From: Escherichia phage PSD2002
DNA length: 64,000 bases
Sequence record: OK335775.1
Strand: one strand, 5' to 3'
In this document: positions 34,795 through 60,334 of the stretch, in pieces
Numbering within the stretch: the first letter of the stretch is position 1
Layout of the letters: every line of letters begins with the position of its first letter
Translations under genes and position numbers: made by a program
The notes under the pieces: model-generated
What the model was told of the DNA's origin: nothing
Seen by the model: only the letters and a program-made list of their open reading frames with translations
Database searches by the model: none

Positions 34795-34819
34795 TGGCTG
34801 TCGGCATAGGAGCATGAAG

Positions 34820-34915
34820 ATGATTTATTACTTAGAACCCTGGGCTTGGTCAACAATGATTATAGGCCCTATTTTAATCGGTTTATTCTTTTCATGGTTA
34901 GCGAGGAAATTGTAA
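34820..34915 (+). CDS. hydrophobic micro-protein (31 aa)
   Basis: Below the ORF-track size cutoff; ATAGGAG SD; MIYYLEPWAWSTMIIGPILIGLFFSWLARKL; stop abuts the next ATG. Confidence 0.35.
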   Translation: MIYYLEPWAWSTMIIGPILIGLFFSWLARKL

Positions 34916-42546: not shown

Positions 42547-42769
42547 AGAATATGTAGAGGCTGCCGATAAGGCGGTCCACGAACTTACCCTAGCTTATTA
42601 TAAAGAGCATGGTAAATTCCCAGACAGTTATTCAGTTTTAAAATCTGCTTTAACTCGCTCGTATAATAATATACTATCTGATGTGTATAATTTAAAATAT
42701 GAGCACATGGAAAAATATGGAACAGAACTCGACCGTTCTGAAGCATTCAAACAAATATTAGGAATTTAA
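42533..42769 (+). CDS. hypothetical protein
   Basis: 78 aa from the internal ATG; overlaps the upstream gene end. Confidence 0.4.
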
Positions 42770-42770
42770 A

Positions 42771-43034
42771 ATGTTTAAAGTTTATGGTTATGATTCAAAT
42801 ATTCACCGTTGTGTTTTCTGCGATAATGCCAAACGTCTGCTTGATGTTAAGAAACAATCTTACGAATTCATTAACGTGATGCCGGAAAAAGGCGTATTTG
42901 ATGATGAGAAGATTGCTGAACTCTTGACTGCTCTTGGACGTGAATCTCAGGTAGGTTTGACTATGCCTCAGGTATTTGCTCCTGATGGAAGTCATATTGG
43001 TGGCTTTGACCAACTGCGAGCATACTTCAAATGA
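42771..43034 (+). CDS. nrdC: phage thioredoxin/glutaredoxin NrdC
   Basis: 87 aa; closely resembles T4 NrdC (MFKVYGYDSNIH.C..CDNAKRLL ... GLTMPQVFAPDGSHIGGFDQLR). Confidence 0.9.
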   Translation: MFKVYGYDSNIHRCVFCDNAKRLLDVKKQSYEFINVMPEKGVFDDEKIAELLTALGRESQVGLTMPQVFAPDGSHIGGFDQLRAYFK

Positions 43035-43192
43035 TTGAATTATTGTTGGTTGTTTTGTATCTTATCATCGGTATTGGTTATGCTAAGACCCTAGCTAAAT
43101 TAGATGATTCAGGTGACTTTTGTTGGTGGTTGACGTCTATGATTTGTTGGCCTTTATTTCTGGTTGGTGCTTCATTCTGGAACTTCAAATGA
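43031..43192 (+). CDS. small membrane protein (53 aa) flanked by 19-bp direct repeats
   Basis: ATGA overlap with the nrdC stop; hydrophobic; ACTTCAAATGATTGAATTA occurs at 43024 and 43182. Confidence 0.4.
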   Translation: MIELLLVVLYLIIGIGYAKTLAKLDDSGDFCWWLTSMICWPLFLVGASFWNFK

Positions 43193-43497
43193 TTGAATTA
43201 AACGAACAAACCATTTTTCTAGGTGATGGTACCGAAGATGACCTGGAATATAAACTATACGAATATATGGTTTGGTTAGCCAAAGCAGAAGGTATTGACT
43301 TTGTTGTAGCCCATCCATATGGCGAGAACACCGTTGTAATCGGTGGTACTGCTTATGAAGTCCAATGGCAATACGTTGGGCTTGAATCTGAAGAATTTGA
43401 AGAAGATGAACACGGCGATTGGCATCCAGTCGGCCCTTGGTACTGGGAACACGGTGAACCTGATTTTGAAGTAAGTAGTTGGTGGTGTGACCGTTAA
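43189..43497 (+). CDS. hypothetical acidic protein
   Basis: Start at the repeated ATGATTGAATTA junction. Confidence 0.45.
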   Translation: MIELNEQTIFLGDGTEDDLEYKLYEYMVWLAKAEGIDFVVAHPYGENTVVIGGTAYEVQWQYVGLESEEFEEDEHGDWHPVGPWYWEHGEPDFEVSSWWCDR

Positions 43498-43619
43498 GCC
43501 ATGGTATACCGCTCGATGGGAAACTGTCGAGCCAGAGGAACCTGTTTACAACGATTCCGAAATAGAGTATAATGAACCTTCAAACAATGATTTAATTGAT
43601 ATGGAGTTTGGGTTTTACT

Positions 43620-43796
43620 ATGAAAACTGAATTGATTTATACCGAAAAGTTAAACGGTGGTAAGGTCTGGAAACTTCTTATTAAAGGAAGTCCTACTGAT
43701 CAGTTTATGGCCACTTGTGTAGGGTTATACACCCATCCTACTAAAAAGATGATTCGTCAATTTAAACGTTTGCATCGTTCATTCTATGGGGTCTGA
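43620..43796 (+). CDS. hypothetical small protein
   Basis: 58 aa; weak SD. Confidence 0.3.
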   Translation: MKTELIYTEKLNGGKVWKLLIKGSPTDQFMATCVGLYTHPTKKMIRQFKRLHRSFYGV

Positions 43797-43797
43797 T

Positions 43798-43890
43798 ATG
43801 GAGGCTCTTATTACGGTATTTTGGGTAGGAGTTGTTTTATTCGGATTGTTGTTAGTGCTAAGTTACACTGCTAAACTATTAGGATATTAA
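43798..43890 (+). CDS. hydrophobic micro-protein (30 aa)
   Basis: MEALITVFWVGVVLFGLLLVLSYTAKLLGY; overlaps the upstream stop; below the ORF-track cutoff. Confidence 0.3.
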   Translation: MEALITVFWVGVVLFGLLLVLSYTAKLLGY

Positions 43891-43925
43891 TAAATACCCT
43901 TATCTAATAATGGTAAGGGTTTATT

Positions 43926-44399
43926 ATGTTGTTGACCGGCAAATTATACAAAGAAGAAAAACAAAAACTTTATGATGCACAATGTGGTAAGTGTTTGATT
44001 TGTAAACGTGAATTAAACCCTGATGTTCAAAGTAACCACCTTGACCACGACCATGAATTGAACGGGCCAAAAGCCGGTAAGGTTCGTGGTTTACTATGTA
44101 ACCTGTGCAATGCTGCAGAAGGACAAATGAAGCATAAGTTCAACCGTTCTGGTCTTAAAGGTCAAAACGTTGACTACCTCGAATGGTTAGAGAATTTGCT
44201 GGTCTATCTGAAAGCTGATTATACTGAAAACAATATTCATCCTAATTTCGTTCCTGATAAAACCAAAGAGTTCAGCAGGTTAGGTAAGGAAGAAATGATT
44301 GCTGAAATGCTTTCACATGGAATGACTTATAATGAATCTGACACTAAGAAACAAATGGTCGATTCATTTAAAAAACAACTGAGGAAATCGCTTAAATGA
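43926..44399 (+). CDS. 49: endonuclease VII (Holliday junction resolvase) gp49
   Basis: 157 aa; closely resembles T4 EndoVII (MLLTGKLYKEEKQK ... NHLDHDHELNGPKAGKVRGLLCNLCNAAEG). Confidence 0.95.
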   Translation: MLLTGKLYKEEKQKLYDAQCGKCLICKRELNPDVQSNHLDHDHELNGPKAGKVRGLLCNLCNAAEGQMKHKFNRSGLKGQNVDYLEWLENLLVYLKADYTENNIHPNFVPDKTKEFSRLGKEEMIAEMLSHGMTYNESDTKKQMVDSFKKQLRKSLK

Positions 44400-48982: not shown

Positions 48983-49126
48983 ATGGAACTACTTTTAGGA
49001 TATGTCGTGTTATTCATGGCATTCTACACATTCACACGAGCTTGTTGGATAGGATTCTTTTCCACTCCTGACGGGTTCATTTCAATAATTTTATTTTGCA
49101 TTGCAATAACGGCGCTTGGCTTATGA
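48983..49126 (+). CDS. small membrane protein (47 aa)
   Basis: SD TGAGGAGAACAT; hydrophobic; stop overlaps the gp47 start. Confidence 0.35.
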   Translation: MELLLGYVVLFMAFYTFTRACWIGFFSTPDGFISIILFCIAITALGL

Positions 49127-59455: not shown

Positions 59456-59692
59456 ATGGAAGCTTTAATCGTTAGTGCTGGTGTTTTAGGATTTGGTTCT
59501 CTGGTTATTATGTTCATCGGTTACTTTTTACCATGGATTCTGGCTCTTCTACGAGGCACTCGTAGTAATGTCGGAATTTTCTTCCTAAACCTTCTGTTAG
59601 GATGGACTATGATTGGTTGGGTAGTGGCTTTAATCTGGGCTATCGTCGCTGAACGTAAATCAAATGCACAAATCATTATTGTTAAGCAATGA
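59456..59692 (+). CDS. imm: superinfection immunity membrane protein Imm-like
   Basis: 78-aa two-TM protein immediately downstream of gene 43, as imm is in T4. Confidence 0.55.
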   Translation: MEALIVSAGVLGFGSLVIMFIGYFLPWILALLRGTRSNVGIFFLNLLLGWTMIGWVVALIWAIVAERKSNAQIIIVKQ

Positions 59693-59826
59693 AAATAATT
59701 ATTTTATTTCTTATAATGACTGCCTTTACCATTTATTGGGCAGTGGCAATTCCACCAATGATTCCGACACTAATCATCGGATGGATTATTCTTATAGCAC
59801 AAATTAAGTATAACTGTTTTAATTGA
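59689..59826 (+). CDS. small membrane protein (45 aa)
   Basis: ATGA overlap with the imm stop; MKIIILFLIMTAFTIYWAVAIPPMIPTLIIGWIILIA. Confidence 0.35.
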   Translation: MKIIILFLIMTAFTIYWAVAIPPMIPTLIIGWIILIAQIKYNCFN

Positions 59827-59833
59827 GGATATT

Positions 59834-60334
59834 ATGAAAAAGTTAATTATCGCAATGAGTATGCTCCTATCAGGTTGCGCGGTCCAATATGGTGATGCAG
59901 TTTCGGCCGATGAAGTTGGTAAAGCTCGTATCGCAGCTGAACAGAAACAATTCGATGGCGAAATGAAATTCCGTGCAGGTTCTGGACTTGTGTACACCCG
60001 AGCTAATAATCAATGCGGTAATAACTGTGCAAAATATGCTCAACGAGAAATCGAATTCCAACGTGAACAAGAGTCCAAGCGTGAAGCGGTACTAGCCAAA
60101 CACCAGGCAGAAATGAAGCGTCAAGATGATTTGTACAAAAAGCAGAAACTGTATGCGATGTGCGTAAACCATATCAATCTACAGATTTCCATCCACGAGG
60201 CTCGTTATTACGAAATGCTCGAAACCGAGAGCTTCGGTAAAGCTCGTGATTATAAGAAACAAATCAATAAGCTCAAGACCAAAGCACTGGCGGCAATAGA
60301 ACAGTGTATTGAAATCGGTAAAGATAAGATTTAA
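59834..60334 (+). CDS. lipoprotein
   Basis: Signal peptide with lipobox LLSGC; charged helical mature domain. Confidence 0.55.
   Translation: MKKLIIAMSMLLSGCAVQYGDAVSADEVGKARIAAEQKQFDGEMKFRAGSGLVYTRANNQCGNNCAKYAQREIEFQREQESKREAVLAKHQAEMKRQDDLYKKQKLYAMCVNHINLQISIHEARYYEMLETESFGKARDYKKQINKLKTKALAAIEQCIEIGKDKI

Follow-up and report, generated by a model that had tools for sequence, protein, structure and literature searches.

Small open reading frames (ORFs) of T4-type phages have been described as promoter-early stem-loop (PeSL) cassettes, ORFans bounded by a short repeated motif that is proposed to act as a site of homologous recombination and to allow excision and re-insertion as mini-circles (Arbiol et al. 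2010, PMC2839356; Comeau et al. 2014, PMC4122927). Here we describe a related arrangement in Escherichia phage PSD2002 (sequence record OK335775.1), where, within the 64,000-nt stretch analyzed as a whole (the window), a gene of 53 codons (the mini-gene) lies between nrdC and a homologue of T4 gene 49.3 and is flanked by two exact copies of a 19-bp sequence, each placed on a stop-start junction. We consider it likely that this repeat is a coupling junction standing on either side of an accessory gene in a variable slot, and that recombination from junction to junction generates the states of that slot. As with PeSL cassettes, the small ORFs belong to a hyperplastic region, are present or absent between near-identical phages, carry the motif on both sides and leave their neighbors undisrupted; the mini-gene is itself a repeat-bounded ORF that is missing in a near-identical phage. 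Unlike PeSL cassettes, the nrdC slot contains no intergenic DNA, its motif is a coding stop-start overlap that is local rather than dispersed, and the cassette brings no regulatory signals of its own and would rely on translational coupling. Since its junctions have neither a sigma-70 promoter nor a stem-loop, we rejected membership in the PeSL class.

While PeSL modular shuffling is the closest concept, the nearest parallel in mechanism is deletion or unequal exchange between short direct repeats. End-points of deletions in T4 rII reportedly fall at short direct repeats, as Pribnow et al. are said to have found in 1981 and Singer and Westlye in 1988. T4 deletions of small non-essential ORFs have also been recorded (Mosig et al. 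1998, as cited in PMC2839356), and the GGGC motif that Mosig et al. reported is absent here. The shared features are the retention of one repeat copy, a precise product, repeats of about 10-20 nt and the loss of small non-essential ORFs, and in the present case the segment has repeats at both ends (19/19) and alleles lacking it keep one copy. The locus differs from the T4 deletions in that its alleles are polymorphisms of natural isolates, not laboratory mutants, and in that the repeats lie exactly on gene boundaries, such that every product is a functional operon.

More distant systems share isolated features with the locus. Integron cassettes, target site duplications and miniature inverted-repeat transposable elements (MITEs) resemble it as promoterless single-ORF units with direct repeats in a fixed slot 3′ of a resident gene, but the locus lacks an integrase or transposase, any attC-like structure and terminal inverted repeats, and the 139 nt between the repeats contain neither a start nor a stop codon of their own. 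An origin as a transposon or MITE was rejected, as the ends of 43043-43181 have no terminal inverted repeats and the insert codes only for a 53-amino-acid hairpin. The superinfection immunity protein Imm is likewise a short, hydrophobic, two-helix, non-essential protein from same-strand clusters that match T4 early regions, but it has no detectable sequence relationship to the mini-protein, which matches PHROG 6756 only, and membership in the Imm family was rejected. Our literature search found no description of the nrdC-49.3 slot or of stop-start junction repeats, which is weak evidence given the incomplete coverage of that search.

The 19-bp repeat and the junctions it occupies

The region studied is 93-97% identical to the Dhakavirus phages JS98, IME08, QL01, WG01, IME341 and PSD9, all T4-type coliphages. 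Its first gene, nrdC (42771..43034, plus strand), encodes a phage thioredoxin/glutaredoxin of 87 amino acids that aligns with T4 NrdC and ends in RAYFK-stop; homologues 93-97% identical are annotated as NrdC thioredoxin in IME08, JS98 and QL01. The mini-gene follows (43031..43192, plus strand), and its product, which runs from MIEL to WNFK-stop, is a predicted two-helix membrane hairpin (MIELLLVVLYLIIGIGYAKTLAKLDDSGDFCWWLTSMICWPLFLVGASFWNFK). Third comes the homologue of T4 gene 49.3 (43189..43497, plus strand; 102 amino acids, function unknown), which matches PHROG 4203 (E 5e-47) and is so annotated in IME08, JS98, QL01 and T4.

Within the 64-kb window there are exactly two occurrences of the 19-mer ACTTCAAATGATTGAATTA, at 43024..43042 and 43182..43200 (both plus strand), with a spacing of 158 nt. 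Copy 1 (ACTTCAA-ATGA-TTGAATTA, exact in the window and in PSD9) covers the nrdC stop and the mini-gene start: the nrdC TGA (43032-43034) overlaps the mini-gene ATG (43031), and the left half of the repeat is made up of the final nrdC codons, TAC TTC AAA TGA. Copy 2, identical to copy 1, covers the mini-gene stop (43190-43192), which overlaps the 49.3 ATG (43189). Both the mini-gene and 49.3 begin with MIEL, and the tails entering the two junctions are YFK-stop for nrdC and NFK-stop for the mini-gene. A preliminary description, made from the sequence by eye of a model, had reported exact repeats on these junctions and a MIEL start on the genes flanking the second of them, and both statements are borne out.

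The resemblance of the two junctions ends with the repeat, as no similarity extends past the 19 nt on either side, and a search of the 64 kb tolerating up to 3 mismatches found no third copy. As a control we took the context from -7 to +12 of all 33 ATGA-coupled plus-strand junctions in the window and compared them in 528 pairs. The two copies of the repeat match at 19/19 positions, while the best of the 527 other pairs reaches 15/19. Shuffled sequences, searched with up to 3 mismatches, gave a mean of 0.08 matches each, and two or more matches arose in 1 of 100 shuffles. The perfection of the repeat nevertheless hinges on one synonymous site: the nrdC Tyr codon is TAC in the window and PSD9 versus TAT in QL01 and others, where likeness falls to 18/19 and the first junction has the form ATTTCAAATGATTGAATTA.

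Neither junction carries a convincing promoter or stem-loop of its own. Folds of 76 nt around the two copies were no better than shuffled sequences (z = -0.09 and +1.16), which gives no sign of a stable stem-loop at either. The scan for sigma-70 promoters found a weak 9/12 match at the first junction only (43006-43035), none at the second, and no intergenic space at either, and the 20 nt before each ATG, read by eye, hold at best a weak Shine-Dalgarno-like sequence.

States of the slot among relatives

A synthetic precise excision, consisting of nrdC, one 19-mer and 49.3, was searched as a probe against the phage collection. It aligns uninterrupted to CUA3 (94.7%), MX01 and AnYang (both 93.8%), JS10 (93.3%) and T4 (82%), and in these phages nrdC is joined straight to 49.3 through a single junction copy. 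Comparison with relatives lacking the insert had been suggested as a check on the preliminary description, and the single-copy empty site expected from it is the one that these genomes carry.

Slot spans sort the relatives into discrete classes, which we defined among the best 60 matches (about 46 distinct phages) and for which each state was verified at the sequence level. The slot is empty in 4 phages (569 nt). Fourteen carry the mini-gene only, the state of the window, PSD9 and QL01, in a 53- or 55-amino-acid form (726-733 nt), and 4 (NC-G, CLB_P2, dhabil and Ec2-ASingh) carry only a 58-amino-acid gene termed "RB69 orf092c-like" (742 nt). At least 2 have the mini-gene together with a 22-nt orf092c-like remnant of the VR7 type (754-759 nt), and about 22, for example JS98, IME08 and SP18, have both genes (900-918 nt).

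The junctions of the fullest state account for those of the others. Where both genes are present, the junctions read ATTTCAA-ATGA-TTGAATTA between nrdC and the mini-gene (J1), ACTTCAA-ATGA-CYGAATTT between the mini-gene and the orf092c-like gene (J2) and TGGAATT-ATGA-TTGAATTA between the orf092c-like gene and 49.3 (J3). The NC-G junction is the left half of J1 joined to the right half of J2 (ATTTCAAATGACCGAATTT); the junction of JS10 and CUA3 is J1 crossed with J3 through a common 12-nt ATGATTGAATTA; and copy 2 of the window repeat is the left half of the JS98-type J2 joined to the right half of J3. Every slot state, as read from its junctions, is the exact, in-frame and coupling-preserving product of joining two of the three ATGA junctions. 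The window 19-mer is on this comparison a composite, its left 11 nt reflecting similarity of the nrdC and mini-gene tails and its right 12 nt reflecting identity of the mini-gene and 49.3 heads, with the two halves adjacent in the window only because the orf092c-like gene is absent.

Slot states are interleaved on the trees of both nrdC and 49.3. JS10 (neither gene) pairs with JS98 (both genes), and dhaeg (mini-gene only) groups with NC-G and CLB_P2 (orf092c-like gene only). MX01 and AnYang (neither gene) stand beside the clade of the window and PSD9 in the nrdC tree. JS98 and JS10 are 97% identical and free of gaps over 900 nt on each side of the slot, and the 343-nt slot content is the sole indel there.

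The same arrangement also occurs with dissimilar junctions. Klebsiella phage F48 has nrdC, the mini-gene, the orf092c-like gene and 49.3 fully coupled by ATGA overlaps, and EcS1 has nrdC, the mini-gene and 49.3. The preliminary description held that finding this arrangement without the repeats would tell against its proposal, and such a situation exists in part: likeness of the junctions is 16/19 in dhaeg, 9/19 in EcS1 and 6-12/19 among the junction contexts of F48. The presence of the same order with dissimilar junctions in F48 and EcS1 argues for an ancient origin of the genes and of their order, with no need for the repeat, and against a recent insertion.

Less precise changes have also left traces in the slot region. 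The spacer of 22 nt between the mini-gene and 49.3 in VR7 (2429-2450 of its locus sequence) is the 3′ remnant of an orf092c-like gene (...aatttatggcggaattATGA); here the cassette was lost in another way, and imprecisely. The span of VR7 is shared by TH15, TH57 and VR25. Within Winklervirus, the 49.3 homologue of Vettismorki (around 1661-1744 of its locus sequence) is cut to 27 codons relative to that of X20 (1661-1957). The deletion is in frame, runs from one copy of CCAGGTAGA (QVD codons) to a second and leaves a single copy behind. The Vettismorki deletion and the VR7 remnant show short-repeat deletion to be visibly active in the slot region.

Mosigvirus offers a parallel at the same end of nrdC. 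The order in APCEc01 is nrdC, a 49.3 homologue, an 18-nt spacer and a gene for a 118-amino-acid protein with an orf092c-like N-terminal half. Copies of a 21-nt direct repeat, CTGCGAGAAWATTTTAAATGA (20/21), lie on either side of its 49.3 homologue, at 1151-1171 and 1466-1486 of the locus sequence. The first copy consists of the last codons of nrdC (LREYFK-stop), and the second, within the non-coding spacer, provides the start ATG of the following gene. In many other Mosigviruses the match sets in only at the first base of this second copy, which there abuts the thioredoxin gene without 49.3, and in mar005P1 (901-921 of the locus sequence) the empty nrdC/118-amino-acid junction agrees with the predicted crossover product at 144/145 nt. 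Coding constraint cannot explain a fossil of nrdC in non-coding DNA, which argues that in Mosigvirus 49.3 entered the junction between nrdC and the 118-amino-acid gene and duplicated that junction.

Proposed recombination between junctions and its alternatives

We infer the following sequence of events for the nrdC slot. The repeat would be a translational-coupling junction in which an upstream ...TTC AAA TGA overlaps a downstream ATG ATT GAA TTA..., and the fullest slot would offer three related ATGA junctions, those of nrdC with the mini-gene, of the mini-gene with the orf092c-like gene and of the latter with 49.3. A crossover, or an unequal exchange, joining any two of these would remove whole ORFs or, in the reverse direction, add them. 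The products would be in frame, would keep stop-start coupling and would need no promoter, yielding four states: neither gene, the mini-gene only, the orf092c-like gene only, or both. The window would represent the second of these, in which absence of the orf092c-like gene brings the mini-gene tail to the 49.3 head and leaves a junction that is 18-19/19 like that of nrdC and the mini-gene. The repeats are better read as substrates or scars of recurrent junction-to-junction recombination than as the footprint of one insertion. Loss has probably been more frequent than gain in the lineage of the window, with the empty sites more simply explained as losses.

Expression would follow from the same arrangement. 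Upstream of nrdC lies a sigma-70-like promoter match (TTAAAA-18-TATAAT, 10/12; 42638..42667, plus strand), found by consensus scan only and a candidate start of an nrdC-mini-gene-49.3 transcript. The first terminator-like stem-loop 3′ of the slot is located at 43896..43920 (plus strand), upstream of gene 49, and is kept in all aligned relatives. The promoter-like site, the absence of any terminator-like site before that stem-loop, and ATGA overlaps with at best a weak Shine-Dalgarno-like sequence together suggest cotranscription of nrdC, the mini-gene and 49.3 with reinitiation. The mini-gene would most likely be translated by coupling to nrdC (termination-reinitiation) on an early transcript.

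Several points weigh against recurrent junction recombination. F48, EcS1 and X20 keep the arrangement despite their dissimilar junctions. Homologous recombination within flanks more than 90% identical could spread existing alleles, and therefore the scattered states do not prove recurrent events at the junctions. For some of the inferred crossovers the homology is very short or imperfect, amounting to the 4 nt of ATGA or to 10/12 positions for loss of the orf092c-like gene and to 12 nt where both genes were lost. The lineage of the window itself appears compatible with either direction, gain or loss.

A bolder form of the same idea treats the stop-start overlap that follows nrdC as a portable site of recombination, by which T4-like phages would move single, promoterless, coupled ORFs (the mini-gene, the orf092c-like gene and 49.3) in and out of the operon. 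Each cassette would carry one junction copy, possibly through a circular intermediate, as a coding counterpart of PeSL and integron cassettes, with the Mosigvirus fossil as an insertion footprint. If this were true, insertions would be guaranteed to be in frame and immediately expressed, but we regard it as doubtful.

Recent gain is an unlikely account of the window. Here an empty nrdC/49.3 junction would have acquired the mini-gene by stop-start recombination that duplicated the 19-mer, either from a circle of junction plus ORF or by unequal exchange, which comes near to the inserted cassette of the preliminary description. That proposal was correct in that the limits of the mini-gene coincide with the repeat and empty sites exist in CUA3, JS10, MX01, AnYang and T4, several of them close relatives. 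The grouping of the empty-site phages MX01 and AnYang beside the clade of the window and PSD9 on the nrdC tree, the perfection of the repeat in those two genomes, and the Mosigvirus case of insertion with junction duplication at the nrdC tail all fit it as well. A recent arrival is disfavored, however: the mini-gene is syntenic with nrdC across five genera (40-55% identity), and both its WNF(K) end and its M-I/V-E start are of long standing. The second junction is equally explained by loss of the orf092c-like gene from the commoner state with both genes, and the perfection of the repeat reduces to the one synonymous site at which QL01 differs. Acquisition from a relative bearing the mini-gene would moreover need homology in the flanks only, not in the junction.

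Origins of the mini-gene out of the junction itself fare no better. No similarity past 19 nt and an invariant WNF leave a recent copying of the nrdC tail onto the mini-gene, or a birth by tandem duplication spanning the junction, without support, and birth by a very ancient duplication of this kind is likewise unsupported. No HNH or GIY-YIG ORF indicative of a homing endonuclease occurs between 42771 and 43926 and no recombinase gene lies in the slot; endonuclease-stimulated recombination may act nearby in some relatives, such as VR7, where an HNH endonuclease gene follows 49.3.

Selection could also keep the two copies alike if the 19 nt were a functional cis-element of the mRNA, either a RegA-type repressor site or a reinitiation context. 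RegA operators of T4 overlap the start codons of early genes, and the repeat spans -7 to +12 around both AUGs and is A/U-rich and unstructured, as expected of a coupling or initiation region. A cis-element is nonetheless very improbable, as the 64 kb hold no third copy at up to 3 mismatches, relatives with the same genes (dhaeg, EcS1 and F48) have diverged at these positions, and phages with both genes have a different junction after the mini-gene. Operator selection would also leave the non-coding fossil of Mosigvirus and the exact recombinant products unexplained. Coincidence, finally, is scarcely credible: although sequence space is narrowed by ATGA overlaps, by AT-rich codon usage and by terminal residues that are common, so that part of the likeness is forced by coding (FK-stop, M-I-E-L and the mandatory ATGA) and junction pairs of 14-15/19 do arise by chance in the window, the 33-junction and shuffle controls led us to reject chance or a generic junction constraint, and natural indel alleles end exactly at the junction sequences.

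The mini-protein, its neighbors and wider meaning

Homologues of the mini-gene occur in at least five phage genera. Its product is a full-length match to PHROG 6756 (residues 1-53 align with profile positions 1-55 of the 56; E 1.2e-29), and tblastn located the gene in 79 phage records, adjoining nrdC on its downstream side in every record examined. Ten copies from Dhakavirus and Gaprivervirus have a nonsynonymous to synonymous ratio (pN/pS) of about 0.2, with 9/16 variable sites at third codon positions. Homologues 51-53% identical occur in Kagamiyamavirus EcS1 and in Winklervirus X20, Kc304 and Vettismorki, and F48 (Marfavirus) has a more distant member. Across five genera, at 40-55% protein identity, the gene has a similar position: it directly follows nrdC in Dhakavirus, Gaprivervirus, Kagamiyamavirus and Marfavirus, is one small ORF removed in Winklervirus, and has 49.3, or the orf092c-like gene followed by 49.3, as its 3′ neighbor. 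The HMMER scan of 1.84e9 representative proteins returned 11 clusters (50% identity), and Y10, G14, I15, G16, K19, W40, P41, W50, N51 and F52 are invariant in 12 representatives. The family core G-I-G-[YCT]-x-K and W-P ... [FV]-W-N-F is present in the window mini-protein. Members at 36-58% identity all have the WNF end and nearly always the K after it, and the start of distant members is not MIE. This pattern marks the mini-gene as a real, old gene under purifying selection.

AlphaFold, run on the family alignment, returned a confident helical hairpin (predicted local distance difference test, pLDDT, 86) with helices at residues 2-24 and 30-50 and a kink at P41. Hydropathy peaks at residues 6-13 and 39-44 agree, marking two hydrophobic segments on either side of a charged loop, and the predicted form of the mini-protein is a hairpin inserted in the inner membrane. 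No profile of known function matches it: Pfam gives only a sub-threshold hit to DUF5504 (16.2 bits vs 27), and PHROG 6756 is listed as "unknown function". The word-indexed protein search found only five near-identical clusters with uninformative names, one of them "ATPase", evidently a mislabel. Natural phages are viable without the mini-gene, which is therefore dispensable. Dispensability combined with purifying selection fits our best guess, a conditionally useful accessory factor or modulator of the host envelope or membrane.

Annotation of the gene is uneven among relatives. It is intact yet unannotated in JS98 (1501-1662 of its locus sequence) and IME08 (2297-2464), whose records call the orf092c-like gene with an out-of-frame, TTG-start N-terminal extension running through the mini-gene. 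Some tblastn matches are limited to amino acids 18-53 (IME08 type); a variant N-terminus in these copies was rejected, as the DNA shows an intact 55-amino-acid gene with a two-codon insertion. In Esco_phi_B-01 (OP292222.1, 101151-101876) the slot spans 726 nt instead of 727, and the tblastn match to the mini-protein is confined to residues 20-53 (100%), which suggests a 1-nt frameshift reflecting either a pseudogene or a sequencing error. Winklervirus has a further small ORF between nrdC and the mini-gene, another slot occupant (around 1344-1508 in loci L010, L011 and L012); it is annotated as 54 amino acids with a GTG start overlapping nrdC, and about 26 amino acids from an internal ATG are more plausible.

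Beyond the slot, the annotation of relatives gives the order nrdC, an unnamed small ORF, 49.3, small ORFs related to 49.1 and pin, and gene 49 (endonuclease VII, 43926-44399). The stretch at 43497-43926 is a mosaic among relatives, in which 49.2, 49.1, pin-like genes and other small ORFs come and go. Identity over 900 nt downstream falls to 65-69%, with many gaps, when the window is compared with PSD9 or MX01.

The preliminary description also listed other hydrophobic micro-ORFs, and here it was largely right. Three fall in PHROG families: 34814-34915 (PHROG 12165), 48983-49126 (PHROG 6693) and the 45-amino-acid hydrophobic ORF at 59689-59826 (PHROG 3610). An ATGA overlap at 59689 joins this third ORF to a preceding imm homologue (59456-59692, PHROG 1039), and a lipoprotein-like ORF (MKKLIIAMSMLLSGC...) comes after it at 59834-60334. 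The fourth (43786..43890, plus strand; 34 amino acids, or 30 from the ATG at 43798) lies between an RB32-ORF078c-like gene and the gene 49 stem-loop. It has no PHROG match and is kept at 93-97% in MX01, IME08 and IME341. Presence or absence of this ORF is an 85-nt polymorphism, with QL01, JS98, JS10, CUA3, AnYang, IME540, NC-G, dhaeg and VR7 lacking it.

Taken with what is known of T4-type phages, the locus presents the known shuffling of cassettes in a variant form, at coding junctions; its four-state slot and the Mosigvirus fossil are neat and would not surprise a specialist. Current views are not overturned, as gene flux at short repeats is expected in T4 hyperplastic regions. The analysis flags a conserved family of 53-55-amino-acid membrane proteins that is unannotated in JS98 and IME08 and named "ATPase" in at least one source, and nature supplies near-isogenic pairs, JS98 with JS10 for example, for work on the function of such micro-proteins. 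If junction recombination is correct, the PeSL idea would extend from intergenic regulatory motifs to coding junctions, and the nrdC slot would give a single-nucleotide view of how T4-type phages add and drop tiny genes in coupled operons with expression unbroken.

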